From assembly GCA_964345045.1 (NCBI GenBank), contig CAYFPM010000003.1, positions 70,038 through 134,037 of the forward strand: a DNA stretch of 64,000 bases. Reading direction: 5' to 3'. The DNA is from an uncultured Gammaproteobacteria bacterium (GTDB lineage: Bacteria > Patescibacteriota > Patescibacteriia > Magasanikbacterales > UBA922). The position numbers and the translations under genes are program-made. Of the stretch, positions 2,569 to 64,000 are shown in pieces. The notes beneath the pieces are model-generated. The model searched no databases and was not told the origin of the DNA. It worked only from the letters and a program-made list of their open reading frames with translations. The first letter of the stretch is position 1. Every line of letters starts with the position of its first letter.

Positions 2569-4406
2569 TTGTTATACCACATTTGAAAAACTAATAAATT
2601 CCAAATTTTTCTACCATTATCTTTTTGCAAACTCATGTGCTCGTCAATAATATTCTTTACTTCTTTTTCATCAAAAAAACCAGTGTTTTTTATGTTTTCA
2701 TTAGACAAAGTCTCTAGTGTAAAATCTTTTAATTCCTTGGTAAACCACTTGGAAAGTGGTACCCCAAAACCTTGTTTTTTTCTATATATAATTTCCTTGG
2801 GCAATTTGTCCTTCATTAACTCTTTCAAAAGATGCTTAGTTTCAAAACCCTTTAGATGATAATTATATGGGAGAGACGTTACCAAGTCAACGAATTGATA
2901 ATCTAAAAAAGGAGCTCGTACTTCTAGTGAATTAGCCATACTAGCTCGGTCAACCTTTACCAAAACTTGATCCATAAGATATGTTCGCATATAAACTTTT
3001 GCCAACTGCTGCAATCGAGGAGCATCTTTTACCGAAAAAAAATAATTTTCAATCTCTTTGTAAATATTATTTTCTTCTTTATTTTTTATTAATTTATTTC
3101 TTGAATTTTTTGAGAAAGATCCCATCCAATCGTGATGAATATGTTCGTCTTCACTAGACAAGCCTGCCAAAAGTCTATCTAGTTTAAAACCAAAATTAAA
3201 ACGATCATGCGATGTGCCAATCATTTTTCTAACTTGTTTTAAAAAAACTTCTCCTAACTTATGGTTAAAAAATGGCAACATTTGTTCGGCAAAAAAAGTT
3301 GGATAACCAAAAAACAATTCGTCTCCCCCATCTCCTCCCAAGGCCACGGTTACTTTTCCCCTAGTAAATTTGGAGAGCAAATATGTAGGGATTACCGAAT
3401 AATCGGCTACTGGTTCATCAAATATATCTGGAACTTTTTCTACTACATCCAAAGCTTCTTTGGCCGACAAAATATGTTCATAATGATCTGTTTTCAAAAA
3501 ATCTGCTACTTGCCTAGCATAATTACTTTCATCATAACTTTTTTCTTCAAAACCAATACTAAAAGTTTTTATTTTTTGATTGGAATTTTTTTGGGCGTAG
3601 TAAGCAATAGTTGAACTGTCTAGCCCTCCGGAAAGAAAAATTCCAAGTGGCACATCTGCTACCAATCTTTTTTTGGTAGCCTCCGACAAGCAGTTTTCGA
3701 GAAGTTCCAAAGCTTCCTCTTTGTTACATTCTTTTTTTTGTTCAAAACTTATATCCCAAAACTTTTTCTTGTTTATCTTACTATTTTTTAATTGTAGGTA
3801 ATGTCCTGGTTCCAATTTGTAAACATTTTCAAAAATAGTATTTGGAGTTGGGATATAATCAAAAGCCAGGTATTGTTCCAATGATCTAAGATTGATTTGT
3901 TTTTTGAAACTTGGGTGTGCTACCAAAGATTTTAATTCTGAACCGAACATAAAAGTTTGTCCAAACATAGCCCAGTACAATGGCTTTTTGCCCATTTTGT
4001 CTCTAGCCAAAATTAGATTTTTGTTTGCTTTATTATAAATTGCCAAAGCAAACATTCCGTTAAATTTGGCAAAACAGTCTACACCAAAGATTTTGTAAGC
4101 TGCCAAGACCACTTCTGTATCACTTTGACTTTTAAATTTGTAACCAAATTTTATTAATTCTTTTTTTAATTCTTGAAAATTATATATTTCACCGTTGAAA
4201 ACTATTACCAAATTTTGATCCAAAGATACCATAGGTTGATGCCCAAGTGTGCTGGTGTCTATAATAGAAAGCCTTCTGTGTCCCAAGCCAAGATTATTTT
4301 CTACAAAAAAACCAACATCGTCTGGCCCACGATGTTTTATAGAATTAGTCATGCTCTCCAAAATTTCTCTTGTACCTTGACCAAAATAGCCGGCAATTCC
4401 ACACAT
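2559..4406 (-). CDS. asnB: Glutamine-hydrolysing AsnB-family amidotransferase (asparagine synthetase family). In this context it is probably a sugar amidotransferase.
   Basis: MCGIAGYF is the N-terminal nucleophile (Cys2) motif. The SGGLDSS PP-loop is present. I chose the start at the Met of MCGIAG (4406) rather than the longer ORF-track start. Confidence 0.85.
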   Translation of the reverse strand: MCGIAGYFGQGTREILESMTNSIKHRGPDDVGFFVENNLGLGHRRLSIIDTSTLGHQPMVSLDQNLVIVFNGEIYNFQELKKELIKFGYKFKSQSDTEVVLAAYKIFGVDCFAKFNGMFALAIYNKANKNLILARDKMGKKPLYWAMFGQTFMFGSELKSLVAHPSFKKQINLRSLEQYLAFDYIPTPNTIFENVYKLEPGHYLQLKNSKINKKKFWDISFEQKKECNKEEALELLENCLSEATKKRLVADVPLGIFLSGGLDSSTIAYYAQKNSNQKIKTFSIGFEEKSYDESNYARQVADFLKTDHYEHILSAKEALDVVEKVPDIFDEPVADYSVIPTYLLSKFTRGKVTVALGGDGGDELFFGYPTFFAEQMLPFFNHKLGEVFLKQVRKMIGTSHDRFNFGFKLDRLLAGLSSEDEHIHHDWMGSFSKNSRNKLIKNKEENNIYKEIENYFFSVKDAPRLQQLAKVYMRTYLMDQVLVKVDRASMANSLEVRAPFLDYQFVDLVTSLPYNYHLKGFETKHLLKELMKDKLPKEIIYRKKQGFGVPLSKWFTKELKDFTLETLSNENIKNTGFFDEKEVKNIIDEHMSLQKDNGRKIWNLLVFQMWYNKWI

Positions 4407-4408
4407 AA

Positions 4409-5545
4409 TTAATCTAAAAATTTCAAAATGTTTTCCACCCTTTTGTCCCAAGTGTAAGCTTTCACTTTTTTAGAGGCTTCTTCTACAATATCTTCTATTG
4501 ATTTTCCTCCAACCAAAGCTATTTTTATCCCTATCGCCAAAGCTTCGGGATTGTCTGGTTCTACCAAAACAGAATTTTTTTCATCTAGTATTTCTCTTAT
4601 AGATGGCAAATCAGAAGCTACAATTGGTCTATTGGCAGCCATATATTCAAACAATTTCATTGGCGATGTATATTGTTTGGATATTTTGCTTTCTCCACTA
4701 TTTGGCAAAACCAAAACATCGGCAGCACACATATATTCTGGGATAGTCTCATATTTTTTATGTCCAAGAACTAATACATTTTCAAATCTTCTTGTTTTTA
4801 TTTTTTGTGTGAAGCTAGCAATATCTTTGTCTGTTCCACCGACAAACACGAGAATTTCGTCTTTAAAAAAATTAGAAGCTTCTAACAAAGTATGTGCTCC
4901 TTTCCATTTGTATAAGTGGCCTGTGTAAAGAATTAATTTTTTTTCTAGTGGGAGATTAAGTTCTTTTCTACATCCTTCTTTTGTTTTTTTTATAGAAAAT
5001 TTATTGATATCTACAGCATCAGGAGCTACAAAAATTTCTGCATTTTTATTTTTATCCAAAAACTTTTGCTTTAATGGCTCTGTTATCACTATTATCTTGT
5101 ACACTTTTAGCAAAAGTTTTGTGTAAATCTTGCTTTTTATTTTTGGAAAATTATGAGCTTCAAAAACCATTCTTCGTTTTTTGGATAAAAAAAATATTGG
5201 TAGTAAATCTCTGGTATAAACAAAATCATATTCATGATTGTGTTTTTTTGTATAAATAAAAACTGACAAAGCAAAACTTAAACTCTGCAAATAAAAAGCA
5301 AATCTACCAAATACTTTATCTAACTTAATTACATCCCAACAAAATATTTTTTTGACTCCAAAAGTTTTGGGGATATTATAATAATCAAAAATATCAGTGT
5401 GTATATTGTTTTTTCTTTTTGGCAAAAGTAAAGTAACTTCTCTACCAGAGTTGGCAAAAGCTTCACACATTTTGGCAATCTGAATACCATGCGCTTTTTC
5501 GGTAGGCATCCTAGCATTTGCTATGTACAATATTTTTTTATTCAT
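4409..5545 (-). CDS. Glycosyltransferase family 4 (GT-B fold).
   Basis: A C-terminal GT4 signature is present (...LVEPDNPEALAIGIKIAL...). It is tightly packed in the operon. Confidence 0.8.
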   Translation of the reverse strand: MNKKILYIANARMPTEKAHGIQIAKMCEAFANSGREVTLLLPKRKNNIHTDIFDYYNIPKTFGVKKIFCWDVIKLDKVFGRFAFYLQSLSFALSVFIYTKKHNHEYDFVYTRDLLPIFFLSKKRRMVFEAHNFPKIKSKIYTKLLLKVYKIIVITEPLKQKFLDKNKNAEIFVAPDAVDINKFSIKKTKEGCRKELNLPLEKKLILYTGHLYKWKGAHTLLEASNFFKDEILVFVGGTDKDIASFTQKIKTRRFENVLVLGHKKYETIPEYMCAADVLVLPNSGESKISKQYTSPMKLFEYMAANRPIVASDLPSIREILDEKNSVLVEPDNPEALAIGIKIALVGGKSIEDIVEEASKKVKAYTWDKRVENILKFLD

Positions 5546-7232
5546 TTGTGTTTAGCTTAATAATATAAACATCTGGCCCCAAATATTTATCTTTTGATTG
5601 CCATATTTTGGCAAAAGAAAGCCCTGATCCATCGGTTGGAATATCATTTACAGGATCATCATTTACAAATCCATTATACACCTTAATTACCTCTCCCAAA
5701 GAATCAATGTCCACATTTACACCCTTGGTCTTGGCAAAATCTGGATCAAGAACCAAATATTCAAAATTATTATTTTTTAAATAATCAGCAAAATTGCTAT
5801 AAAAATCTTTGGCAACTACTTCATTTAGATTAAGAGCAAAAAAAATCTTATTATTTCTATATTCTTTAGCCAGTCTTTTTTCAGCCAAATCTATTTTACG
5901 AATTGAAGCTGGTTCTATTTTTTCTTTTTCTAAGACAGCTTCTCTGTTGGCAGGCAATCTGGTAAGTGGAGCAAGCACTACTACTTTGGTGTCCTCCTCT
6001 ATGTTTTGCAAAAAATAATTTCTAGCTGCTGTTCTAGAATCTTCTAACTGACTAAAAAACATACTGGTTGGCAAAATCAAAGCTAGCCAAACAATTACAG
6101 TAATCGCAGCTTGAAGTTTCTGAGATTTATTTGGCAAAACTTGTAAAAAATTATTCAAACTATATCCGGCGACTAGTGCAAAAAGTGGATAAAGAATCAA
6201 AATAAAACGACTGACATCTAAAAAAAGATAATAAAAAATAGCGATATAAAAAATTACAAAAGAAAATATGGCTAAAAAATAGCCTCGTTTTTTCAAAAAC
6301 AACATCAAAAAACCAGCTATTATAAAAAATAAAAATACAGGTTCTCTATTTAATATGTCTATCAAATAAAAATTGTAACTACCAAAAAGACCTACCAAAG
6401 TTTTGCCTTTTGTTATAGCTTCGCTTGCTCCTTCTGCTACATAGAATCCTCGTGGCCAAACCAAGTAAGCTAGCCCAGAAAGAGAAAAAAATCCTAACAA
6501 AGCTTGCCAAGACCAAGGCTTCTTTAATTCTTTTGTTATAGCAAGTTTATCTACAAACAAAAACCAAAACAAAATAAAAATTGTCAAAAGACCAACTTGG
6601 AGACTAATACCAATTCCTAGGCCGGCAAGAAGACAAGCCAATAAATATTTTTTTTCTTTGCCCCAAGTTTTGTGAGACAAAAAATAAATAATTAAAGAAA
6701 ATACAAAAGTTGCCGGCACCCAATGTCTCGCCCAATGTGAGAACAAAACATGCAAAATACTAAAAGACAAAAAGGCGGCTGACAAATAAGCTATTCTTTC
6801 ATTTTGAAAAATATTCTTGGCAGTTTTGTAAACTACCAAAATGGTAAGTACCCCCAAAATTACACTAATTAGGCGGGCAGATATAAATAAAGTAGATAAA
6901 TCTAAAATTGAATAATCCACAAATTGCTGCAAGCTGCCCGAAAAAAATAAAAATTTTGCTCCAAGAATAATTACAAAAGGAAGTAGATAAATATAAGAAA
7001 TATAAGGTGTGTAATAAAAAATTCCTTTAAAAACTTCGTCGTGTAACGACGGAAGCAATGTTTTTAGCTCAATCATTTTTAATGAACCAAATATAAAAGA
7101 AGGTTCATCGGCAATTAACCAGAGAGGCAAACCATAAGAAATTCCAAGCAATCTATAGATAATCCCCAAAAACAAAATTATTCCAATTGGAGTTGAGATA
7201 AATTTAAATATATCTTTTATTTTTGTTTTCAT
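5538..7232 (-). CDS. GT-C family membrane glycosyltransferase (ArnT/PMT-like, GT39/GT83-type).
   Basis: It is a 564-aa polytopic membrane protein with an N-terminal cluster of TM helices and a soluble C-terminal domain. It overlaps the neighbouring genes by a few nt. Confidence 0.7.
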   Translation of the reverse strand: MKTKIKDIFKFISTPIGIILFLGIIYRLLGISYGLPLWLIADEPSFIFGSLKMIELKTLLPSLHDEVFKGIFYYTPYISYIYLLPFVIILGAKFLFFSGSLQQFVDYSILDLSTLFISARLISVILGVLTILVVYKTAKNIFQNERIAYLSAAFLSFSILHVLFSHWARHWVPATFVFSLIIYFLSHKTWGKEKKYLLACLLAGLGIGISLQVGLLTIFILFWFLFVDKLAITKELKKPWSWQALLGFFSLSGLAYLVWPRGFYVAEGASEAITKGKTLVGLFGSYNFYLIDILNREPVFLFFIIAGFLMLFLKKRGYFLAIFSFVIFYIAIFYYLFLDVSRFILILYPLFALVAGYSLNNFLQVLPNKSQKLQAAITVIVWLALILPTSMFFSQLEDSRTAARNYFLQNIEEDTKVVVLAPLTRLPANREAVLEKEKIEPASIRKIDLAEKRLAKEYRNNKIFFALNLNEVVAKDFYSNFADYLKNNNFEYLVLDPDFAKTKGVNVDIDSLGEVIKVYNGFVNDDPVNDIPTDGSGLSFAKIWQSKDKYLGPDVYIIKLNTNE

Positions 7233-7789
7233 ACTTTGAAAATATCGGCTTCTTCTCTAGACAACCATGCTTTTAATGACTCGGCATTTTGATCGCGAAG
7301 AGATAAAGTTGGATTTTCTATTGGCCAATTTATATCTAAGTCAGGATCATTCCAAGCTATATTTGATTCACCATTTTGGTTATATAGCGCAGTATACTGA
7401 TACTCTACTTCGGCCAAGTCCCCCAAAACACAAAAACCAGAAGCAAAGCCTGGTGGAACATAAAGTAATTTTTTGTTGTGACTGCTCAATTCAAATCCCA
7501 ACCATTCTCCAAGTGTAGCGGAATTCTTGCGAATGTCTGCCGCTACTACAAAAGCATCTCCGTTTATAATTCTAATCAATTTGCCCAAAGGCTGATCGTA
7601 TTGAAAATGTAAACCACGTAATATTTTGCCAACAGAACGACTGTGATTGGTTTGGACAAAATTAAGACGAAGACCTGCTTCGGCAAAATAATCTTGCCGA
7701 AAAACTTCCATAAAAAAACCTCTTTCATCTCCCTTTACTTCCGGCTCTATCAAAAACAAACCCTTCAATTTTGTTTCTTTTACATTCAT
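7229..7789 (-). CDS. rfbC: dTDP-4-dehydrorhamnose 3,5-epimerase.
   Basis: The RmlC cupin motifs are classical (FIEPEV.GDERGFF, RGLHFQ, YVPPGFAHGF-like). The start is set at MNVKET (7789). Confidence 0.9.
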   Translation of the reverse strand: MNVKETKLKGLFLIEPEVKGDERGFFMEVFRQDYFAEAGLRLNFVQTNHSRSVGKILRGLHFQYDQPLGKLIRIINGDAFVVAADIRKNSATLGEWLGFELSSHNKKLLYVPPGFASGFCVLGDLAEVEYQYTALYNQNGESNIAWNDPDLDINWPIENPTLSLRDQNAESLKAWLSREEADIFKV

Positions 7790-7844
7790 ATATAAAAACT
7801 TAGGCAAAAAACCAACTACTAATCCCCTAAAAACTAGCACCTAG

Positions 7845-13540: not shown

Positions 13541-13628
13541 AAAACTGCGCTCCAAAGAACCAAAATGGCTGTCTCTTCCTTAGAGACAACCATAAAATTC
13601 TTTGGAAAGGATAGGAAAGAAAGTGTCG

Positions 13629-14426
13629 AGTAATTTTGTAATCGCCACCACTACTTACTGCAGAGACCCTGCAGATGTCCAGGCTAGACTAACTGTGAGA
13701 ACAGTAAAAGAAGCCCGAAGCAGATTCACCCAAATTGTGGTGGCCGATCGTGGCAGCTCTCCTCAATTTGTAGCTATGCTCAAATCTGCCGGAGCAACTG
13801 TCTGTACTGCAGAAGGATCGCCTGGTCAGGCAACTCGTCTGGCTCTAAAAGAAGCTATGGACAGGGCCACCGGTGGCCACTGTGTAGTCTGGATGCCTTC
13901 GTGGATGTATAAGGCAGTAAGCGCAGCGCGCCAATTGGCCGAGAGAATCCACCACAACAAATTCGACCTTTGCCTGGCTTTTCGGACAGCAAACTCTATG
14001 AAAAGCCACCCCGCAGCTCAAATAGCAGCCGAGACTAGAGTCAATCAGTTTTTCAGAGGGTTGTTACCAGCTCCCAAGGAAGGTAGAAGGGTCAAAAGCT
14101 TCACTCCCCTATTCAAACTAGATCAGTGTGACCCAACCCTTGGCGTGTTTGCTATCGGAGCCAGAACTCTTCCGTTTTTTCTAGAGTATGCGGGCAACTA
14201 TGGCGACAATGTTTGGGATGCGATTCTTGTTCCTATCATGCAAATCATTGCTGACTCAAGCATGAAAAAACGGACTCTTTCAGCTAATCGATACAAGTTC
14301 CCCGAAGAGCTGCTTGGCTTGGTGGAGAAAAGAAAACTTTGGCTGGAACTGGCGGATGTAGAAGAAGCCCTAGTAGAGGAGGCAATCCGACTAGGTTGGA
14401 GGGATTCTCATGACAGACTGTGGTAA
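13629..14426 (+). CDS. Hypothetical GT-A-like nucleotide-diphospho-sugar transferase fold protein. It lies in a compositionally foreign high-GC cassette.
   Basis: The ORF is 13602..14426. I chose the GTG at 13629 because an AGGAAAG Shine-Dalgarno lies 5 nt upstream. The N-terminal VIATTTYCRD...IVVADRGSS resembles the GT-A beta1 strand and a DxD-like region. G+C is about 50% by eye against about 30% in the flanks. Confidence 0.55.
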   Translation, partial: SNFVIATTTYCRDPADVQARLTVRTVKEARSRFTQIVVADRGSSPQFVAMLKSAGATVCTAEGSPGQATRLALKEAMDRATGGHCVVWMPSWMYKAVSAARQLAERIHHNKFDLCLAFRTANSMKSHPAAQIAAETRVNQFFRGLLPAPKEGRRVKSFTPLFKLDQCDPTLGVFAIGARTLPFFLEYAGNYGDNVWDAILVPIMQIIADSSMKKRTLSANRYKFPEELLGLVEKRKLWLELADVEEALVEEAIRLGWRDSHDRLW

Positions 14427-14452
14427 GTACCACCAACCGCTCTTTTCCAAAA

Positions 14453-14479
14453 GAGGATTCACAATCCTCAACCCCTTCC
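14453..14479. repeat. Copy 1 of a short repeat element: a GAGGAT(T)/ATCCTC hairpin followed by AACCCCTTCC, then an AAATTTTAAA tract.
   Basis: gaggattcacaatcctcaaccccttcc lies directly 3' of the first high-GC gene. A second copy is at 15377..15402. Confidence 0.5.
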
Positions 14480-14547
14480 TTGTGTTTTTAAATTTTAAAG
14501 ACAAAAGGAAGTGGTAAAAAACACTTCAGAAAGACAAGAGACATTTC

Positions 14548-15183
14548 GTGAATAATTTCTCTTTTCCTGCCAGAATTTCTTGCCACGGAAGATTCAACTC
14601 CATTCGACTAATCCGAGCTACGGTCCCGATCATACCCGACGAGACAAATGCACTGATCGAATTGCGATGGCAAGAAGAGCTAGCAAGGAATCCTAAACTC
14701 CACAACGGCTCACTTGCAGCCCTGCATGCGCTGAATGCAAAGTGTGATCAACTAGAAGTTCGGTGGTGCGAAAGCAACTACCGAGAGTACCTGGGTGCCA
14801 GTCACCCTAACATCCCAAACGAACACCGACGACTACCTATGAGTGTAGGACTCCTCGTCCGAGTCAACTACTCTAGCTACCTAGTCGCAACTCGCAGTCC
14901 AGGGGTAGACTGGCCACTCATGCGTCACCTCAGCGCAGCTGGCGGAGTCAAAGCCGGTGAAAACCCCTTCGACGTAGTCCTGAGAGAGGCCAAAGAAGAA
15001 CTGGGGCTAGACCCTCATGAACTAGAGCCCCTTTCTTGCCTGGGTGTAGTCGAAGATCTGGTGAGGCCGCAGTACATGTTCGTCTTCGTGGCCGATGTAC
15101 AAATCTCCGAAGCAGAACTGATCAAGAGAGCCGCCGCGGCCCCCTCTGCAGAAGAAAACTGCCAACTTACTTTCCTGGATTAG
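14548..15183 (+). CDS. NUDIX hydrolase (high-GC cassette gene).
   Basis: The Nudix box is canonical: GGVKAGENPFDVVLREAKEELGL matches Gx5Ex7REUxEExGU. The ORF has a GTG start. The true start may be the internal Met at MSVGLL. Confidence 0.75.
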   Translation: MNNFSFPARISCHGRFNSIRLIRATVPIIPDETNALIELRWQEELARNPKLHNGSLAALHALNAKCDQLEVRWCESNYREYLGASHPNIPNEHRRLPMSVGLLVRVNYSSYLVATRSPGVDWPLMRHLSAAGGVKAGENPFDVVLREAKEELGLDPHELEPLSCLGVVEDLVRPQYMFVFVADVQISEAELIKRAAAAPSAEENCQLTFLD

Positions 15184-54243: not shown

Positions 54244-55737
54244 ATGAATCACAGCTACGAAATTTGGTCCAGGCAACTGATAAACGCGGCAGACAAGGCC
54301 CTCCAAGATGTCGCTGCCCAACGAAAGCCCAACATGGGCTGGTGGCAAAGCTACTTGAAGCAATACAAGTTGCTAGGTGGAAAAACAGAAAAACTAGAAC
54401 GCTCTCCGGTGCTCGAGGCGGCCAACAATGTCTTTCATGTTTGGATAGCTCTTACCAACAGTATTCCGCTGTTGGTAGGGGTAGAGACAGGTATGGCCGA
54501 TCGCCACTACCTAGAAGCCTTTGTCCCAGACGAGTTCTTGGCGGCTATGACCGCCATCTTCTACGACATCTTGCCCCCTCACCAGAGGAATATCCTCATC
54601 AACAACCTGATTACGGCTCGTTTTCAAGAGGCTGCGACACCCTGGATTGCAGACCAGCGACAGCAGGCTCCGCAAACTCTAGAAAACACAAATATAAACA
54701 AGAGAGAAAATCTCTATCGAGAAATTCAAGCTCTTGCTAGGCTTTGGTTTGCTTCCACCAAGTTCGATCCTTTACCTCAGGCCGCTATCCAGTTCGGGCC
54801 ACAGGGGATCGAGCTAGATGCCACTCGATCGGAAAAAGTTGCTCACAATCTTTTGGCCAGTGAATTTGGTTTTGGTCCGGGTGGAGACCCCGAACCAGAA
54901 CACCGTCGCTGGGCCAAAAGGGTGATTGCCCAGTGTCGACACCGGCATCCTTGGGCTAGACCAGAGCGACTCGAGCGCTACACCGATGCCTTGCAGACGG
55001 TTCGAGACTACTATATTGGCGAGGATTCTGGAGAAGCTAGCGAGAAAATCCGTGATCAGGCCGAGAGGATGATGAGTTCTTTTGGTCTAGATGACGATTT
55101 TGCCTTGATCATGATCTTGGCAGAAGCTTTGGCACTAGCCACTGACTTTTTCTTGCACCCCAATATGTCGAACGAAGACAGGCTACGGGTGGTAGAGCAC
55201 ACCACTTACCAGCAGCTAATTCACAATGAGCTGAACCAACACGAGTGGCGAGTGATCTTGCATACTTTCTTGAGCATTGCCAGCAAAGGATCTCCTCTGG
55301 GAGTTCTTCGTATCGAACAGCTAGATCCGGATCTAGAAGAGGCATTGCAAACCAGGTTCAGAGCTATGGCTCTCATGTTCATGAAGGATCATGACTACAC
55401 GGTCAAAGAACCTCTGCACGTCTTGGCCGAACAAAAAGCCAACAGCCGTATGGCCAAAGCCAAACGTTTGGCAATGAGCAGCTTCTGGTGGGTCTTGCGC
55501 TTTGTACCGGTCTTGCTTTTCTCACGCGACCGAGCCAAGTTTGCTGCCAAGTGGCAGGAACTGCGCTCTATCTGGGGTCTACCTCCCAAGCCAGTCGAGG
55601 AAGTGGTAGAGACAGAGGCTTTGCCAGAGTCGGCCGACAAGACTGATCCTACAACAGAGGATGTAGAGACCACCGGCGATGTTGCCGAGGTCATCCCCAT
55701 GCGTTCTGCGGTTGGGGATCGTCCTTCCGAAAAATAA
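54244..55737 (+). CDS. Hypothetical soluble 497-aa protein of no recognisable family (elevated G+C).
   Basis: The long ORF is in a different frame from the Arg-rich overlapping ORF 54180..54740. Tandem terminators follow it. Confidence 0.65.
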   Translation: MNHSYEIWSRQLINAADKALQDVAAQRKPNMGWWQSYLKQYKLLGGKTEKLERSPVLEAANNVFHVWIALTNSIPLLVGVETGMADRHYLEAFVPDEFLAAMTAIFYDILPPHQRNILINNLITARFQEAATPWIADQRQQAPQTLENTNINKRENLYREIQALARLWFASTKFDPLPQAAIQFGPQGIELDATRSEKVAHNLLASEFGFGPGGDPEPEHRRWAKRVIAQCRHRHPWARPERLERYTDALQTVRDYYIGEDSGEASEKIRDQAERMMSSFGLDDDFALIMILAEALALATDFFLHPNMSNEDRLRVVEHTTYQQLIHNELNQHEWRVILHTFLSIASKGSPLGVLRIEQLDPDLEEALQTRFRAMALMFMKDHDYTVKEPLHVLAEQKANSRMAKAKRLAMSSFWWVLRFVPVLLFSRDRAKFAAKWQELRSIWGLPPKPVEEVVETEALPESADKTDPTTEDVETTGDVAEVIPMRSAVGDRPSEK

Positions 55738-55848: not shown

Positions 55849-55980
55849 TCTCACTAAAACTTTTTTGCAAAGTTTTACTGGGAAGGTACGCCGGGCCGGA
55901 GCAGCTACTCGAGTTTCATCCGAAGATGATCCAAGAGAAGTGCTCCGGCCCTGGTTTAGGCGCGGACGATGAGAAGCTTG

Positions 55981-57957
55981 CTACGGACAGCCGTCGTCAG
56001 GCACACCGTTGCAGTCGTTGTCGTACCCCAGGTCGGCCGGGTTGGCGGGATCGCTCTCGCACCACTCGACCGCCCCAGGATGGTTCTGGAAACCCGTCGG
56101 GGTATCGTCGCAGTCACCACCGAGCAACTGAGAGACCGGAATCGAGCTGTTGCTAGACCCTCGACAAGGCGACACCTCGCAGTAGCCGTCCCCGTCGTCG
56201 TCCCAATCGTCCGCCGTGCCGTCGCTCTGCGGACCACCGTTGGCACCACTGGCACCATACGGCGTCCTACCGCGCTGATCCACGTAGGGCGCGCACAAGT
56301 TGCACGCCCAGTACGAACCGGCGGGGCAGGTCTGCTGCTGGGTGCAGCTACCACCCGTGGCCACGCACATGTCGGTGACCTCGTCGCAGACCTGACCGGC
56401 ACTGCAGGTGACCACAGTGCCCGACTGGCAGGTACCGCTCTGGCACGTCTCCGTTCCGTTGCAGTACGAACCATCGTCACAGTCCGCGTTCACCGTACAC
56501 TGCGGCGGAGCCGCGGCGCAGTCGGGATCGTCTCCGTCGACGAGCCCGTCGGCGTCATTGTCCCAGTTGTCCGTGCAGTTGCCAAAGGCCTGGGTCTCGG
56601 GCTCGAAGGCCCCATCCCCGTCGTTGTCCTCGGCGCTGGTACAGACGTGACCCGTGGGCGTGGTCGTCGCAGTGTTGGTCGACGAACAGCCCCAGAGGAA
56701 GCCGGCCGGCAAGTTCGCCGGGGTGCGGTTCTCGAGGGGAGATCCGTTCCCGGTGATACCAGTCGGCGTCTGCATGCATTCTGCGTCCGAGGTCGGACCG
56801 TTGCAACAGTCGGGAATCCAGGACTGAACGCACTGACCGTTGACCGCCCCGTGCGTGGTGCACGCGTTGTTGTCGGCACAGTCCACGCACTGGTTGCTCT
56901 GGCAGGCGAAGCCCACCGCACAATCCGCATCCGTGGCACAGCCCAAGCACGTACCGGCCGTCACCCCCGAGATGTCCGAACACACACCGCTGGCGCAGTC
57001 GTTGTGATCGTCACAGCAGAGGGGGTTGGTGCTGGCCGTGTTCACGCAAGCGTGATTCACGGCGTTGTCGGTGGTACAGGCGTCGCCGTCGTCGCAGTCG
57101 AGAACCGTACAGATGTTCGCGGTGCAAACTTCGTCGGTACGACAGTGGGCGTCCACGAGACACTGCTCGCAGGTACCCGCCGCCGAGGTCGAGGTCTCGG
57201 TACAGAACAAGCCGTCTTGGCACGGAGCCGAGGCAGGCGCGGCGTTGCAACAGTTGGGAATGGCCTGGTTCACGCACCCCATCGTCCCGACGGTGTCCGT
57301 GGTGCAGGCGTTGCCATCGTCGCAGCCGGTGCAGGTGTCGGTGGTATCATCGCAGTACTCGGTAGCGAGGCAGGCACTGGCGCCGCTCTGGCAGGTACCG
57401 GAGACCATGTCGCAGGTCTCGGCACCGTTGCAGAAGAGGCCGTCACTGCAGTCCGCGTCCGAGAGACAGCTGACGCAGCGATCGCCCGCCTCGTCGCACA
57501 TCTCGGTGGCGGCACACGGAGGCGCGGTCACTTGGCAGGTACGTCCGGTGGTGGACGTCCCCACGCAGGTGGCGCTCCCGTTGCAGAAGAGGCCATCGGC
57601 CCCGCAGTCCGCGTCGGAGAGGCACTGACAGCTGATCCCCTCGTCGACATTGCCATCGCAGTTGTCGTCGATACCGTTGCAGATCTCGGTGGCGCCGGGG
57701 TAGACGTTCGGGTTGTGATCGTCACAGTCCGGAGGCCCATCGACGATGGCTCCATCGTTGCAGTTGTTGTCGTAGTACGTCTGATTCGGAGAACCGTCGC
57801 CGTCGCTGTCGATGGAGTTCTTGTCATCGCAGATGTGGACACGGACAGTGCCCGAAACGTTGACGAAGTCGGTACCGCAAGCCGTGAGGCCCGCGGTGAG
57901 CAGGAAGGTGAAGAGAGACAGACAGAGTCGCTTGGCTTGCGCCATGGTGACCTCCAA
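55981..57957 (-). CDS. Cys-rich repeat lipoprotein (658 aa). It carries Myxococcales-type cysteine-rich repeats and MopE-like putative metal-binding motifs. G+C is very high, roughly 65-70% by eye.
   Basis: A GGAGG Shine-Dalgarno lies 6 nt upstream. The lipoprotein signal is MAQAKRLCLSLFTFLLTAGLTAC. Recurring motifs include DCDDHNPNVYPGATEICNGIDDNCDG, CxSDADCxDGLFCNGxETC and CDDGNACTTDxxxxxxC. Confidence 0.8.
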   Translation of the reverse strand: MEVTMAQAKRLCLSLFTFLLTAGLTACGTDFVNVSGTVRVHICDDKNSIDSDGDGSPNQTYYDNNCNDGAIVDGPPDCDDHNPNVYPGATEICNGIDDNCDGNVDEGISCQCLSDADCGADGLFCNGSATCVGTSTTGRTCQVTAPPCAATEMCDEAGDRCVSCLSDADCSDGLFCNGAETCDMVSGTCQSGASACLATEYCDDTTDTCTGCDDGNACTTDTVGTMGCVNQAIPNCCNAAPASAPCQDGLFCTETSTSAAGTCEQCLVDAHCRTDEVCTANICTVLDCDDGDACTTDNAVNHACVNTASTNPLCCDDHNDCASGVCSDISGVTAGTCLGCATDADCAVGFACQSNQCVDCADNNACTTHGAVNGQCVQSWIPDCCNGPTSDAECMQTPTGITGNGSPLENRTPANLPAGFLWGCSSTNTATTTPTGHVCTSAEDNDGDGAFEPETQAFGNCTDNWDNDADGLVDGDDPDCAAAPPQCTVNADCDDGSYCNGTETCQSGTCQSGTVVTCSAGQVCDEVTDMCVATGGSCTQQQTCPAGSYWACNLCAPYVDQRGRTPYGASGANGGPQSDGTADDWDDDGDGYCEVSPCRGSSNSSIPVSQLLGGDCDDTPTGFQNHPGAVEWCESDPANPADLGYDNDCNGVPDDGCP

Positions 57958-58437
57958 TCAAAGCCAGCTTCTCGAAAGATGCTGACGAGTTACAAGTTCT
58001 GGCGCCCCGGAATGGAGCTCCACAATCGTGGTGCCTTGTCCCAGGCGCCTCGGGTCGTTGGGCAGCTAGGTAGCCATCCGCAGAGTTTGGTTTTTTTGTA
58101 GTCATAGAGAGTGCTAACGAAAGATCCAAGTGGTAATAGAAAAAGATACTTCTAATCCACTGCTTTACGCTCAGTATGACTAATTAACAAAAACAAACTC
58201 TGCAGACAACTTGCCTAGCAAAATCTTCTCATCGATTGTAATGAACAATCGTGTCTACTGTTTGAGTAGTGACACATAAAATATTTAGTAAACAACTAAC
58301 TATTTTATCTATCACAACTTTTTTACAAACTCTCTTTTGCCTTCAAACTTTTTTTAAAAGCACAAGAGAATTCGAGGTGTGGGCAGGGCACCTCTTCGAA
58401 CCGAAGTCCGAAGAGGGCCTGCCCACTGAAGCAAGAA

Positions 58438-58851
58438 CTACTGATCGATCGTGACCGTGGTCTGACCACTGTCGCGATTGACGTAGGCGTCGAGGTCGAG
58501 CTCGACCTCGGTCTTGCGGTCGAACCCACCGTTGGCCGCAATGGCTCCCACGGTGATGGCACCGGCGAGCAACAACACGCCGATGCCGATCGCGATCCCG
58601 ATGGTCGTGTTGTGCTCGCGCACGTCACGAGCCACGACGTCCTCGGCCTTGCGGCTCTTCCTGACCCGCTCCACGCACTTGCCGTACTCGGCCTTCTCGG
58701 ACGGATCCGAGAGGTTGAGCGGCACGCACACCGCCTCCGGGCTGGGGAGCCCGGCGGTCGGCGAACGCGGCGTGGTGGCGCAGCCCGAAGCGAAGACCAG
58801 CATGCAGACGAAGATAGAGACGAGACTGTAGAAGAAGTTGTTGTTCTTCAT
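58438..58851 (-). CDS. Glycine-zipper (2TM-type) lipoprotein.
   Basis: An AAGGAG Shine-Dalgarno lies 7 nt upstream of the second ATG. The lipobox is LVFASGC. The C-terminal IGIAIGIGVLLLAGAITVGAIAANGG is a glycine zipper. The start overlaps the stop of the upstream gene. Confidence 0.7.
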   Translation of the reverse strand: MKNNNFFYSLVSIFVCMLVFASGCATTPRSPTAGLPSPEAVCVPLNLSDPSEKAEYGKCVERVRKSRKAEDVVARDVREHNTTIGIAIGIGVLLLAGAITVGAIAANGGFDRKTEVELDLDAYVNRDSGQTTVTIDQ

Positions 58852-58868
58852 GATCTGGTTCTCCTTAT

Positions 58869-59837
58869 TCATCGCACGCCACCACGAACCGCAGTCCGCA
58901 TGCTTCGACGCTCGGCTTCGGCCGCGGTGGCCTTCTGCTCGAGGTTGTCGATGCGGATGTTGTCCCGGTTGTGACCGCTACGCAACAGAGTGATCGCATC
59001 CATGATCGACACGGTATCGGCAGCCCTGGCGGTCGCCTCGTCGACGAACGTCTTGTCCACGGCCGCGGCTCGCGCCTTGGCCGCCTTGGCGTTGGCAGCG
59101 ATCTTGGCCGTATTGGCCTTGATCTCGGTGTCGAGCGCGGTGTGAACCGTCGCCACGTCGCCACGAACCACCGCTTCGCGGGTGTCCGTGTAGGTCTTGG
59201 CGACCCGCTCCGTCTTGTCGATCTTCTGATCGGTCTCCATGTCGTGGAGCTTGCCCGCGAAGTAGGAAACCGTGAAGCCGAACGCGACGATGCCAGCCAG
59301 AGCGCCGATGACGCCCCAGCTCTTGCCACTCGACCACGAGTTCTTCATCTCGGCGCGGGTCTGCGCATCGATGAAGTCCCCGCGCAGGTCTCGCACCTCG
59401 TCGCCGAGGCGCTCGACCTGTCCGATGCGGTGCTGCGACAAGGTGTCGAGCTCCACGCCGTCGCCACCATTGCGCCCGTAGCGCTGCTGGGGACGGCTGG
59501 CCGCATCGAGCTGGTCGCCGAGCGCCCGCTCGGCCACGCCGATGTAGCGCCCGGCCAAGTCCGCGGTCAAGCGGTCGTGGCGCGGCTCCGGCACCTGCAG
59601 ACGAACCTGCGGCAAGTCCACGTCGACCGTGGGCCGCTGGGGCTCTCGGTCGACCACCACCGGCTCACGCCGCGTCGGCCGCTCGCCGACGTAGGTCTCG
59701 TCGATCTGGTCACGGTAGACCGGACCGCCGAAGTGGTGGTGATGCTGGTGCTCGTGTAGCCCTTGGCGTCGAGCGTCGTCGAAGGGATCCTGCCGGGTCC
59801 CGGGGTTCATGTTCAGTTCGGTTGCGTCACCGGACAT
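58869..59837 (-). CDS. Hypothetical bitopic membrane protein. It has a His-rich disordered N-terminal domain, one TM, and an Ala/Lys-rich coiled-coil C-terminal domain.
   Basis: An AGGAGGAA Shine-Dalgarno lies 6 nt upstream of the ATG at 59837. The His-rich tract is HEHQHHHH. The TM is WGVIGALAGIVAFGFTVSYFAG. The gene is co-transcribed with the downstream lipoprotein, overlapping it by 4 nt. The longer ORF-track N-terminus runs into AT-rich promoter DNA. Confidence 0.65.
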   Translation of the reverse strand: MSGDATELNMNPGTRQDPFDDARRQGLHEHQHHHHFGGPVYRDQIDETYVGERPTRREPVVVDREPQRPTVDVDLPQVRLQVPEPRHDRLTADLAGRYIGVAERALGDQLDAASRPQQRYGRNGGDGVELDTLSQHRIGQVERLGDEVRDLRGDFIDAQTRAEMKNSWSSGKSWGVIGALAGIVAFGFTVSYFAGKLHDMETDQKIDKTERVAKTYTDTREAVVRGDVATVHTALDTEIKANTAKIAANAKAAKARAAAVDKTFVDEATARAADTVSIMDAITLLRSGHNRDNIRIDNLEQKATAAEAERRSMRTAVRGGVR

Positions 59838-60364
59838 GGTGTTCCTCCTAGTCCGATCAAGTGCCCGAGAAAAAATCTCAGGCCAGGTTGTAAGTACTAG
59901 CGAAAAATCCGCGCTGCAGGGCATGCCTAGCAGACATGCTTGTCTGGCTACTGCCAGGCATCCCCACAACGGGGGTCCTCTACAAACACGGTTATTAGCT
60001 ACAAAATTTGCAACCAATATTCCGTGTTTGTAAAAGTAGTTCTTGCTTCTTGTAAAGAACCGTGTCAACTATATTTGTGACACCTGAGATATACACCAAA
60101 TTGATATATATTTCAATAGGCACAAAAAACCAATAAAGCATTTTTTAACATCATATAATAGCACATTTTAACAAATTTGTCAAGACTCTTATTAACTAAT
60201 TATTATATTTGTGTGTCTTAATTTTTGTTAAAAATTTGCCTAATTTTAGCTATTTTTACAAGACCTTTTGTCCACAATAATTATTCTGAACAAAAGGAAG
60301 TGGCGGCACTCTGTAGTATCTCTACTATAGAGTGCCGCAAAAAAATGAAGCAGTGTGTGAGGCT

Positions 60365-62617
60365 CTAGCTAGAGCTACCCCCACGAGACGGCCACGGAGA
60401 CCTAGAACCCAATCCAGTCCCCCTAGAGCTATGCTCATCCAAGGCGGCCTGGGACTCCGGATCCAGATCCGTCGACAGACTCACCTCTCCGTTACTCGGA
60501 GCAGAATCGTCGGTATCCCACGAGGGCCTAGGCGTCACCACCGTCTCGGGCAGATCCCGAGGCAGAGCCTCTCGCAAGGGAGGCTCCGGGTCTTGCCCAG
60601 CGTCTCCCGACGATGAGGGCAAGTCCTCGGTGGTTACCTCCGGGTCAGTCTCCTCTGCCGGCGAGGGCAGACGGAACTCCGGAGCATCCAGCCCGAAGGT
60701 ACCTTCGAAGTTACTGATACCGGCAAGCAAGACATCGATCTCGTCGCCAGTACTGCGTTTGAGCTGCTTGGGCATCTCACCAGTCCAGCCCTGGCTCCGC
60801 AGCCAGTCCTCGTTCGGTACGCAGCCGTTCTGGGCCTCTTCGCGGCTGGGCCACGAGAGCGGCCAGCGCGGCAGCTTCTGATCCCCGGCCAAGGCCATGG
60901 CCTCCATGGCGAACACCCTGGAGAGAACATCGGCCAACGAACCTTCGTAGCACTGCTGAGCGTACCGCCGAATGAGGTCGTAGGACACCCCCGGACTCTT
61001 GGACAGAGCTCGGTAGACCGGGTTCAGAAGGCACATCTGAACCGCCTGAAGCATGGTTGGGTAGACCTTGGTACGCAGTTTATCCACAGCCTTGCGAGCG
61101 CGCTCGATGGCCTCCGTGGGATCGACCCAATCGAGAGACTCGAGAGTCTCACGATCGAGATGCCAGGGCCTCTGCCCCAACGTCTCGAGAGGATCGCTCT
61201 TGACCGGCAGGTCGCTGCGCCACGGGGGCACATGGTAGCCGTCGGCCTCCAGCTCTTGCTTGGCCAGGAGAAGCTTCCGTAGGACATCGCCCGGGCCGTC
61301 TTCTCGTTGCCAGTGCTCCGAGAAGGCCTGCTCGAGCTGTGCCGTAGTCTGGCAGTTGCCTTGCGGCGACTGCTGCCCGACCCGACCGATGCGCCACTCG
61401 TGGTAGTTCATGAGAGCCTTCGAGGCTTCTGCCTGGAGGGTCAGATACTTCTTCTCCTCCGGACTCATGAACAGGTACTTCCAAGTCATGGCCTTGTAGA
61501 CCAAGAGCAGAAGCACCACCGCCATGGCGAGGCCAAGGATGACCCAACGGGTCTCTTGGTCTACCTTGCGCAGCTCGGTGAGAGCCTCACTCGTGTCGGA
61601 GTAGCCCCCCTGGTACCAACGCTGATCCGGCTTCTCGGCCTTTACCAGTGCTGCCAAGTCCATGGCCTTGAGCTCTTCGAGCTTGGCCTGGAACTCGGCT
61701 TCCAGCTTGGCCAGAGCCTCTCGCTTGTCCTTGGTATGCTTCTCCTCGAGACCGGGCGTCTCGGCGTCGAAACCAGCCAAGATCGACTCGGTCTGGCCTT
61801 CGTAACTGTCTTGACTCCCGGCTGCGGCACCCGCTGCTCCAGAGAGAGCGGCAGCCGCCGCGGCTCTGGCCGAAGCGATCGAGGCGATAGTGCTGGTACG
61901 GGTACCAGCCCAACGCGCCGAGCGCATGGTCCGACGAGCCCGACGACCTCGAGCCTTGGCACCGGCTCGCCGACGCCGCTCGATTTGGTCCTTGGTAGCT
62001 GCTCGATCCGACTGAAAGGCGGCCTTGGCACCAGCAAGCTGGCCCTCGGCCGCCGTGATCTGGGGCTCGTACTCGGCCTTGATCTTGGCTTCGGCCGCCG
62101 TACGGAGTTCGAGCTCGATCTTGTCGTTCTGAGCGGTCATCCAGCGATCGATGTCGCTTTGGAAGATGGCCATCTCGAAGTACTTGGCAAACCCAAACTG
62201 GATGATGAACACCACAGCGATGTAGACCAGATACTTGAACTTGCTTCCCGAGCTTACTCGCCAACTGTCTGGGCTGGCGATGTAGATGGTTCGGTGCAGA
62301 GCGGCGATGGCAGCTGCCACGAGCAGGCCTGCCAGAATGGCAATGGCCAGCTGCGTGTACAGCCCGTACTGATCCAGGAAGAGGCTCACGTACTTCGCGG
62401 CTCCCACCGCATCATACGCAAACAAGACGGCGAGAATGATGGTGGCGCCCACGAGGACACCTTCCATCTTCTCGGTGATCTTGTCGAAGCCTTTCCGAAG
62501 GAGGAACGGGTCAAAGGGCTTCTTGCCCAAGTTGTCGGTGTTGTTGGTATCCACGAAAGAACCTCCCTTTCTGTGGAGATCGGTGCAGTAGAGACAAATC
62601 GCCTCAAACTGCTTCAT
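60365..62617 (-). CDS. Large hypothetical membrane protein of about 750 aa. It has N-terminal TM helices, a long Ala/Arg/Glu-rich coiled-coil, an internal TM, a C-terminal globular domain and an acidic Pro/Ser-rich tail.
   Basis: The ORF is 60365..62803, with a GTG at 62803 in AT-rich DNA. I chose the first ATG (MKQFEAI, 62617) but the start is uncertain. G+C is above 60% by eye. Confidence 0.6.
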   Translation of the reverse strand: MKQFEAICLYCTDLHRKGGSFVDTNNTDNLGKKPFDPFLLRKGFDKITEKMEGVLVGATIILAVLFAYDAVGAAKYVSLFLDQYGLYTQLAIAILAGLLVAAAIAALHRTIYIASPDSWRVSSGSKFKYLVYIAVVFIIQFGFAKYFEMAIFQSDIDRWMTAQNDKIELELRTAAEAKIKAEYEPQITAAEGQLAGAKAAFQSDRAATKDQIERRRRAGAKARGRRARRTMRSARWAGTRTSTIASIASARAAAAAALSGAAGAAAGSQDSYEGQTESILAGFDAETPGLEEKHTKDKREALAKLEAEFQAKLEELKAMDLAALVKAEKPDQRWYQGGYSDTSEALTELRKVDQETRWVILGLAMAVVLLLLVYKAMTWKYLFMSPEEKKYLTLQAEASKALMNYHEWRIGRVGQQSPQGNCQTTAQLEQAFSEHWQREDGPGDVLRKLLLAKQELEADGYHVPPWRSDLPVKSDPLETLGQRPWHLDRETLESLDWVDPTEAIERARKAVDKLRTKVYPTMLQAVQMCLLNPVYRALSKSPGVSYDLIRRYAQQCYEGSLADVLSRVFAMEAMALAGDQKLPRWPLSWPSREEAQNGCVPNEDWLRSQGWTGEMPKQLKRSTGDEIDVLLAGISNFEGTFGLDAPEFRLPSPAEETDPEVTTEDLPSSSGDAGQDPEPPLREALPRDLPETVVTPRPSWDTDDSAPSNGEVSLSTDLDPESQAALDEHSSRGTGLGSRSPWPSRGGSSS

Positions 62618-62899
62618 TGTGAAATCGGACGGAAAACCGCCCCGAATTGGGAATCCGAGGTAACGGCTTCCACAATTTTTGGCTTGTAATCCACATAAGC
62701 CAAAAATTGTAAAAGCCGATCGGTAAAAAACCGTCCAAACATTATAAAGAACTCCGCTTTGGGTACAATTGTCCCACTTTAAGCGAACGGATAAAGATAC
62801 CACAAAATCAAACTTTTGTCAAGATTTTTTGCTAAATTTAGCTAAAATAAGCAAAAAACGCCCAAAGTAGGACGTTTTTATACTTGTTTAAATTGTTTT

Positions 62900-64000
62900 C
62901 TAGGCTGCTTTTGGCAAAGCAGGCTCTTTTCTAACCAATTGCATCTTGTCGTCTACCACCTCTACTTCGGCCAAAAATGATTCTGTCCCATCTACTGATT
63001 CTACCAAAAATCCTGTTTCCCCTGCCGGAGCCGGTTTGAAATTGTAGTTTTTGTCGTAGAAAAAACTTTCTCCTACATTTTTATCCCAAAACTTAATGGC
63101 ATGAGATCCTTCTGGAACAGCAAAATAAGGATCATCTTCGGTTACGCCTCTTAAGAAAATTTTAGATTCTGCATCCAAGTTTTTGAACGTTGCCAGCAAA
63201 TTTTCTGTTGGACTTTTGCTAGTATCGATTTGCATTCCAGTAAATACTGAATCCTCACCCAAACTTAATTTTTGGAAACGTAGAGCTTGTTCAAAACTTT
63301 CGGCAATTGATTTGGCTTTGTCACTAGCATTTAATTTTATATCTCTAAAGGTAGCCATATCGTTGTCTACTTTGGATATATAAGCTTGTTCGGCTTGGCT
63401 GTAACCAGATGCCATCTCTGCCCCAGAAGCAGCTGCTGGTTCGGCCGGCTCGGCTGCTGCTTCGGCTTTTGGAGTAGCAGTTTCAACTATTTTTTCGGTG
63501 CCATATACTCCACCACTACTTTGTGCCAAATCTGTTGTATCTGCAGCAAGAAAATCTTTTTCTTTGGCTTCGTCCAAACTAACTTCTTCTTGACCTACCT
63601 TTACCTCTGCTTCTCCGAGAGGTTCTTTGACAATTAATTCCGAACCGCCGGTTAATTCTAATTTTGTTCCATCGGCACTTAATTTCAAATGACCAATTAT
63701 ACTACCGTCTTTGGCAAAGGCAGCCCAATCGGCTTGGTCTACAGCGCCAACTCTGCCACTGTATAATCTACCAACCTGATCAATCCCCGCTTCGGTAGGG
63801 ACAAATCTAGCAATTCCATCTGTTCCTACTTCTTGGTTTACAGCAATTCCGTTGGCAAATTCTTGTGGAATTTTGTCTCCTTTGTATACAAAATTAGCGC
63901 CTCTTGATTCATCTGGTAATATAATTTTTTTATCACCTTGAACAATTGTATCCCTATAAAATTGTTCGGACAGATCTCCTTTTAGATCTAGATTACCGCT
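62900..64000 (-). CDS. Hypothetical protein, partial (the 5' end lies beyond the window end). It is low-GC and host-like.
   Basis: The reverse-complement frame is open from 64000 down to the stop at 62900. The ORF-track start at 63688 is only an internal TTG. The product is hydrophilic with Ala/Glu/Pro-rich linker regions. Confidence 0.6.
   Translation of the reverse strand, partial: SGNLDLKGDLSEQFYRDTIVQGDKKIILPDESRGANFVYKGDKIPQEFANGIAVNQEVGTDGIARFVPTEAGIDQVGRLYSGRVGAVDQADWAAFAKDGSIIGHLKLSADGTKLELTGGSELIVKEPLGEAEVKVGQEEVSLDEAKEKDFLAADTTDLAQSSGGVYGTEKIVETATPKAEAAAEPAEPAAASGAEMASGYSQAEQAYISKVDNDMATFRDIKLNASDKAKSIAESFEQALRFQKLSLGEDSVFTGMQIDTSKSPTENLLATFKNLDAESKIFLRGVTEDDPYFAVPEGSHAIKFWDKNVGESFFYDKNYNFKPAPAGETGFLVESVDGTESFLAEVEVVDDKMQLVRKEPALPKAA

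Follow-up and report, generated by a model that had tools for sequence, protein, structure and literature searches.

In the 64,000-nucleotide stretch of contig CAYFPM010000003.1 analysed here (hereafter the window), an open frame on the minus strand encodes a protein, here called protein A, that transitive full-length homology identifies as a very divergent DUF4407-type protein. The frame, reported in an earlier note on this DNA, runs from a GTG codon over 60365..62803 and corresponds to 812 amino acids (aa); the same form is annotated by NCBI (P0015, on a 229,673-bp contig). Protein A is a real membrane protein, and the coding sequence that we favour (60365..62554, from GTG 62554) comprises 729 aa plus the stop codon. 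The explanation that we propose, and consider moderately probable as a whole, is that this is a genuine 729-aa DUF4407-type protein encoded in a module rich in G+C at third codon positions (GC3), and that it would form an external stalk on an anchor of four transmembrane (TM) helices.

The relationship with DUF4407 rests on intermediate sequences. Direct scans of protein A returned no match in Pfam, NCBIfam, PADLOC or PHROGs. By contrast, phmmer, run exhaustively over 1.84 billion representatives, yielded 13 remote relatives of 635-910 aa (22-27% identity, E 1e-11 to 8e-4), and the DUF4407 model PF14362 was matched by all ten relatives scanned, over their N-terminal ~350 aa and with E values of 1e-18 to 1e-28. 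Aligned by hhalign to a 15-member profile of the relatives, protein A matched with a probability of 100% and an E value of 1e-41 over 547 columns, covering residues 22-596 (residue numbers are those of the 729-aa form throughout). Hidden Markov models built from the two halves of the profile scored 87 bits (N-terminal) and 122 bits (C-terminal) on protein A, compared with at most 5 bits, and at most 3 for the N-terminal half, on 400 shuffled sequences. The DUF4407 architecture of TM1, TM2, a loop, TM3, a coiled coil of ~200-220 aa and TM4 is present, and the distance between TM3 and TM4 is 212 aa in protein A and 202-227 aa across the family. The earlier note could assign no family and had named a match to one, DUF4407 for example, as the outcome that would overturn its view; the relationship found by hhalign is such a match. 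Other searches were less productive: a word-indexed homologue search returned protein A itself or nothing, low-complexity words having probably swamped the candidates, and no relatives of protein A were found by pattern scans of one-genome-per-species GTDB contigs and of viral contigs or by tblastn against phages and plasmids. Comparison with the PDB identified no solved structure related to it by sequence or fold.

Hydropathy places the TM segments of protein A at residues 32-50, 69-87 and 108-126 (62177..62461, minus strand, as all features of the gene and its flanks given below) and at 338-356 (61487..61543), in agreement with an AlphaFold2 model built with a 14-sequence alignment. The mean predicted local distance difference test score (pLDDT) of this model is 73.6, with values of ~80-90 over residues 30-597. 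In the model, TM3 continues directly as an 87-residue helix (132-218), which is followed by a turn (219-225), a 72-residue return helix (226-297) and TM4, so that residues 132-297 (61664..62161) form an antiparallel coiled-coil hairpin with a polybasic stretch, ERRRRAGAKARGRRARR, near its tip. Residues 137-385, which include the string AKARGRRARRTMRSARWAG, have a high content of Ala, Glu, Leu, Arg and Lys (A50 E24 L24 R20 K20). The C-terminal region (365-597) is ordered and helical (pLDDT ~80-90); from residue 598 onward the model is disordered (pLDDT <50), and the disordered acidic tail (599-729; 60368..60760) is rich in Ser, Pro and Asp, with a net charge of -11 over residues 641-729. Hydropathy, composition and the model thus bear out the layout described in the earlier note, i.e., three TM helices, a coiled coil, a further TM helix, a globular C-terminal domain and an acidic Pro/Ser-rich tail, and the structure prediction that it had called for shows a helical hairpin, an ordered C-terminal domain and a disordered tail.

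The part of the relatives that lies C-terminal to the region annotated by Pfam consists of an 80-aa unit, with PxWP..DP(R)..PW..L..GWxDP at its end, that is duplicated in tandem. The two units are clearly related to each other (probability 98.7%, E 4e-16), and each folds as two helices and a loop rich in Trp and Pro (W/P). In protein A the two copies make up a 230-aa C-terminal domain, with unit 1 at residues 399-483 (61106..61360; PPW..DP..PW..DWVDP) and unit 2 at residues 520-598 (60761..60997; PRWP...W..GWTG), and 12 of the 13 conserved columns of this domain are retained. The C-terminal domain of the family also contains a single, unpaired conserved Cys (GLCxP), and the tails of the relatives are variable. 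Judged from these sequences, the relatives constitute a newly delineated DUF4407 subfamily characterized by a C-terminal tandem W/P repeat, a feature that protein A shares. The DUF4407 half has fared differently. The relatives carry a DRSxxVxDTS loop, PxELxVFxxEIxxRI, an ExAGxGxSG tip, YGGxWxxxRGF and, after TM4, YYSxxAQAAxGN; in protein A all charged and Gly positions of these motifs are replaced and the block after TM4 is missing, ~45 aa being deleted there relative to the relatives. The substitutions include D87H, D94S, R111Y, R138W, E214R, YGG to PDQ and K357T, and the Gly-rich tip is lost.

The length of 729 aa depends on the start codon. Translation most likely begins at GTG 62554, a choice of which we are quite confident on the basis of the sequence: the codon is preceded, at 7 nt, by the Shine-Dalgarno sequence GGGAGG (62562..62567), comparable to the sites of the neighbouring genes B (AGGAGG-6-ATG) and D (GGAGG-5-ATG), and it is the start picked in a separate gene call on a 100% identical ENA contig (L001). 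The hhalign match to the relatives begins at residue 22 of this form. The alternative that the true product is the 812-aa form from GTG 62803 or a 750-aa form from ATG 62617 draws on the frame being open from 62803, on the NCBI annotation of 812 aa and on a GC3 of 0.62 in the 21 codons from ATG 62617 (62617-62555), which compares with 0.82 from 62554 on. We nevertheless consider it improbable. No Shine-Dalgarno sequence was found upstream of either codon, as the earlier note had already stated for ATG 62617; in-frame G+C contents at the three codon positions over 62803-62618 are 0.44, 0.48 and 0.37, without coding periodicity; and the extra 83 residues of the longest form are rich in Cys, Trp and Phe and have no counterpart among the relatives. 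Moreover, a sigma-70-type promoter (62794..62822) reads TTGACA (62822-62817), 17 nt and the extended -10 element TGgTATCTT ending at 62794. GTG 62803 falls within the -35/-10 spacer of this promoter and is, therefore, located upstream of the expected transcript start. The suspicion voiced in the earlier note that the start is internal was thus justified, although the best candidate, GTG 62554 with its Shine-Dalgarno sequence, had not been considered there, nor had the position of GTG 62803 within a promoter, and the product of ~750 aa that it gave is to be replaced by one of 729 aa, favoured by in-frame GC3 and the Shine-Dalgarno site. The publicly annotated 812-aa form probably overestimates the length by 83 residues.

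The gene of protein A (gene A) is the first of four consecutive minus-strand genes, A to D, with GC3 values of 0.74-0.88 (0.74 for A), as opposed to ~0.25 in the rest of the window, which has a G+C content of ~33% and is rich in glycosyltransferase, PMT_2, Wzy and asparagine-synthase genes; for one of the asparagine synthases, the best relatives come from Patescibacteria metagenome-assembled genomes (43-53% identity), which makes the source of the window probably a bacterium of the candidate phyla radiation. Gene B (58869..59837; GC3 0.85) encodes a 322-aa bitopic protein with a central TM helix and a C-terminal coiled coil, gene C (58438..58872; GC3 0.88) a protein with a lipobox signal and a C-terminal Gly-zipper TM helix, and gene D (55981..57945) a 654-aa Cys-rich lipoprotein with a Cu-binding_MopE motif. 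The stop codon of B overlaps a possible ATG of C (ATGA); a second start of C at 58851, with its own Shine-Dalgarno sequence, is the one used by NCBI. The AT-rich spacers between the four genes bear sigma-70-type promoters and long structured leaders. The downstream operon mentioned in the earlier note holds in spirit, given the overlap of B and C, but D has its own spacer. A plus-strand open frame (55969-58101, 710 aa, G+C of 0.79 at first codon positions) was rejected as a shadow of D, the minus-strand frame being the real gene.

We compared 11 loci, i.e., the window and ten further ones (L003, L004 and the L085-L093 series). In the relatives' loci the family gene is surrounded by housekeeping genes: it follows the ATP synthase operon in L087, lies beside dnaA/dnaN in L003, between prfA and groEL in both L004 and L091, and beside pyk, htrA, nrdR and ftsZ in L093; in L092 it is located on a 683-kb NCBI contig. 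The genomes of the relatives look like small Patescibacteria-type genomes. The GC3 of the family gene is 0.60-0.85 in all 11 loci, compared with 0.24-0.68 for the housekeeping neighbours, and the gap is widest in the AT-richest genomes (0.73 vs 0.24-0.33 in L004, 0.76 vs 0.28-0.35 in L091 and 0.72 vs 0.32 in L085). Envelope genes of unknown function next to the family gene are often rich in GC3 too. The genes directly flanking the family gene in L003 and L004 show no conservation. Between the syntenic loci L004 and L091, prfA is 74% and GroEL 81% identical, and the family protein 27%. Just upstream of the family gene in L004, a 193-aa open frame (7229-7810) resembles its TM1-TM2 region (30% over 77 aa, E 2e-4) and may, from this similarity, represent a partial duplicate. 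Locus L088 repeats the gene order of the window, the family gene being followed by genes for a bitopic protein (289 aa), for a protein of 314 aa that has a signal peptide and a Gly-zipper TM helix at its C-terminus, and for a Cys-rich lipoprotein; position and architecture mark 2752-3621 and 3705-4649 as the counterparts of B and C, and 5335-5766 is similar to gene D (E 2e-5).

How this composition arose can be explained in several ways. Taken alone, the window would fit a recent horizontal island, A-D having come from a high-GC donor such as a host or a Myxococcota-like bacterium and having no lineage-specific role, as GC3 is 0.74-0.88 in these genes against ~0.25 around them and as gene D bears the Cu-binding_MopE motif, which is typical of high-GC deltaproteobacteria. 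Recent high-GC transfer fits poorly, however, with eleven distantly related copies: the excess recurs at every locus compared, in relatives that are only 20-35% identical to each other and that include one syntenic pair, and the collections of GTDB, plasmid, phage and viral sequences named above contained no relatives. In addition, L088 has AT-rich spacers, long leaders and, for two genes, promoters of the form TTGACA-17-TAnnnT alignable with those of A and B, so that the spacers of the window carry promoters aligning with a distant locus. We therefore regard recent transfer as unlikely. Patescibacteria are known to exchange many genes, mostly among themselves (PMC12455944), and a GC-rich mobile cassette circulating among these genomes is an alternative explanation of the excess, as is a process peculiar to the gene, for instance GC-biased conversion at a hot spot of recombination. 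Tentatively, and still short of calling it probable, we suggest that the DUF4407-plus-repeat gene nucleates a lineage-wide envelope module, probably of the candidate phyla radiation (CPR)/Patescibacteria, which would be fast-evolving and persistently rich in GC3, with conserved promoter and leader elements of its own, and whose GC excess would be kept by a gene-specific process and not by recent transfer. Such a process might be selection for codon or mRNA properties or, at a locus concerned with the surface or the host interface, very frequent recombination accompanied by GC-biased gene conversion. By comparison, it is highly improbable that B and C are a pair resembling phage spanins and that the cluster is what remains of a lysis or exclusion cassette. 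C matches PHROG 456 'Rz-like spanin' (E 2e-4) and resembles a unimolecular spanin in combining a lipobox with a C-terminal TM helix, and B combines a TM helix with a coiled coil, the stop codon of its gene overlapping the ATG of C, but the PHROG match of C vanishes without the signal peptide, B has no PHROG match, and there were no phage, viral-contig or PADLOC matches and no phage genes nearby. CPR cells are moreover not known to have an outer membrane.

The orientation of protein A in the membrane bears directly on its role. Across the family, Lys and Arg number 0-2 in the TM1-TM2 loop, 2-4 in the N-terminus and 3-7 in the TM2-TM3 loop, and the relative P0009 has a C-terminal zinc ribbon; consequently, an arrangement with both termini inside and the hairpin outside is favoured. 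Under the positive-inside rule, the cytoplasm would hold the N-terminus, the loop between TM2 and TM3 and the repeat domain at the C-terminus, and the coiled-coil hairpin, with arms of ~13 nm each, would project from the outer face of the membrane as a surface stalk on a four-helix anchor. Acting with the bitopic protein and the lipoproteins encoded beside it, the exposed and fast-changing stalk would meet the environment or a host cell, and the conserved W/P repeat domain would hold a partner that is itself conserved and lies in the cytoplasm or at the membrane surface. The fast divergence fits such an exposed, host- or phage-facing role. Because the polar residues of the DUF4407 half are mostly replaced and a polybasic patch lies near the tip, the binding target may differ in protein A, which may thus have changed what its stalk binds. 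The inverted topology would keep the coiled coil in the cytoplasm and expose the Trp/Pro repeat domain and the Pro/Ser/Thr/Asp tail, which would then bind the cell wall; Trp-rich repeats and Pro/Thr/Ser-rich tails are common in wall-associated proteins, a polybasic coiled coil would be easier to keep inside, the relatives P0006 and P0012 carry Cys clusters at the hairpin tip, and TM1 is weakly hydrophobic in four relatives. The Lys/Arg distribution, however, favours four TM helices with the N-terminus inside, and the zinc ribbon of P0009 and the unpaired state of the single conserved Cys of the C-terminal domain also speak against it. We consider this topology rather unlikely but a serious rival.

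The explanation of protein A as an external stalk within a GC3-rich module has to face a number of observations that do not sit easily with it. The stalk contains a stretch with 12 Arg/Lys in 23 residues, which would be hard to export, and the Cys clusters of P0006 and P0012 would suit a cytoplasmic zinc site. With respect to family membership, the PF14362 model (gathering score 31.3 bits) gives no match to protein A even at E <=1, and only 19 of the 46 conserved columns of the DUF4407 half are retained. The GC3 of the 21 codons from ATG 62617 is such that composition alone does not discriminate against that start. The full four-gene module was seen in two loci only, the window and L088, and the genes of L088 that correspond to B and C by position do not resemble them in sequence. 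Finally, our literature and structure searches found no experiment on, or solved structure of, any DUF4407 protein, the family being mentioned in the literature only in passing and in tables; the proposed mechanism therefore rests on topology rules and analogy.

The 5' region of gene A has some further features. An intrinsic terminator of the giant gene upstream (62854..62879; dG -14.7, z -5.6) precedes the promoter described above, and A is predicted to be transcribed from this promoter of its own through a strongly structured leader of ~230 nt (62555..62787; z -7.65). The leader contains a 21-bp hairpin (62664-62718; dG -34.8, z -7.6), which is not a repeated element within the window, and another hairpin that pairs the GTG start codon. 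A 42-codon upstream open frame in another frame (62614..62742; GGAG-9 nt-ATG), the stop of which overlaps ATG 62617, was called as a gene on L001; its GC3 of 0.42, the lack of periodicity and the presence of the perfect 21-bp hairpin within it suggest that it is probably not coding. An Rfam scan of the leaders gave no match. A reading of the leader hairpins as integron cassettes was dropped on inspection by eye, as the RYYYAAC/GTTRRRY cores are absent. On the 3' side, the distance between the stop codon of A and the ATG of B (59837) is 527 nt. The earlier note had described this gap as a 500-nt AT-rich region, which is about right for its length; the AT-rich portion, however, covers only ~300 nt (60070-60364; 22-28% GC), the remainder being a structured leader of 45-58% GC. 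The inverted repeats that it had listed here (60306-60342 and 59985-60045) are real and exceed chance in comparison with shuffled sequences: a terminator-like hairpin lies 3' of the stop codon of A (60303..60338; dG -24.8, z -5.3) and a nested hairpin at 59981-60032 (dG -27.2, z -6.9).

Two short sequences recur in these regions. The leader of A contains GTTCTTTATAA (62742..62752), a copy of the motif GTTCYTTACAA, which is also found on the minus strand in the leaders of B (60050-60060) and D (58236-58246). With at most one mismatch the motif occurs five times in the window, which equals the chance expectation overall, and three of the five are on the coding strand in the three leaders of the island (~1.3 kb). 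Both L088 leaders share an exact 13-mer, GTTCCTTACAATT (2557-2569 and 4941-4953), so that each of the five leaders in the two four-gene modules has a copy of GTTCYTTACAA(TT), in most cases with a hairpin close by on its 5' side. The significance of these small hairpins is uneven (z -0.25 to -3.8), and the leaders of A, B and D cannot be aligned as wholes. Farther upstream, ~22 nt from the -35 element of A, lies the 13-mer TAGCTAAATTTAG (62832..62844); the exact sequence TAGCTAAANTTAG, which includes the palindrome TTTAGCTAAA, occurs in the window only there and at 60240-60252 (minus strand), i.e., ~21-22 nt 5' of the -35 elements of A and B, a placement from which it may be an operator or UP element.

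The giant gene upstream of A (62900-64000 of the window and beyond; L001 1-4653) has a host-like codon usage. Its product, which exceeds 1550 aa and contains Gly-zipper TM segments, shows a weak match to the PADLOC models LeoB/LeoBC (dynamin-like; E 2e-5) and is homologous to a 2251-aa neighbour of the relative P0007 in L085 (E 3e-32). The PADLOC models matched neither A, B, C and D nor the relatives P0003 and P0007. Protein B and the giant protein were also considered as DUF4407 relatives, but profile comparison shows that neither is related. Elsewhere in the window, two regions (13602-15183 and 54244-55737) have an intermediate GC of 49-53% in the 33% background and encode a NUDIX protein and a 497-aa protein without a family; these genes suggest further compositional mosaicism.

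The membrane proteins of DUF4407 are catalogued but wholly uncharacterised. This study adds to them a subfamily with a new C-terminal tandem domain; its genes travel with further genes of the envelope, diverge very rapidly and are foreign in composition to all the genomes in which they occur. Should these genomes belong to ultra-small episymbiotic bacteria, such genes would be prime candidates for the largely unknown machinery by which the cell surface makes contact with the host. Tools based on composition would label the locus as a transferred island, a reading that the comparative data suggest may be wrong.

Among known systems, the Pfam family DUF4407 (PF14362) is the closest to protein A, which has the same three TM helices, coiled coil of ~200 aa and fourth TM helix. 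It differs in adding a 230-aa tandem-repeat domain and an acidic tail beyond the 297 positions of the Pfam model, and in the replacement of most conserved polar residues, the model giving no match. The sole structural neighbours in the PDB are the coiled-coil arms of SMC/Rad50/MukB and spectrin repeats (E >=0.3, TM-score <=0.3), which also form long helical hairpins; protein A, in contrast, lacks an ATPase head and has its hairpin embedded in the membrane at both ends, so that the likeness to SMC/Rad50/MukB is an analogy of shape and not homology. Methyl-accepting chemotaxis proteins likewise possess a long, membrane-anchored antiparallel coiled-coil hairpin of which the Gly-rich tip is the most conserved part, and the relatives of protein A carry ExAGxGxSGxxGxG at the hairpin turn. 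There is no match in sequence or fold, however, and protein A has its hairpin between two TM helices and has lost the tip motif.

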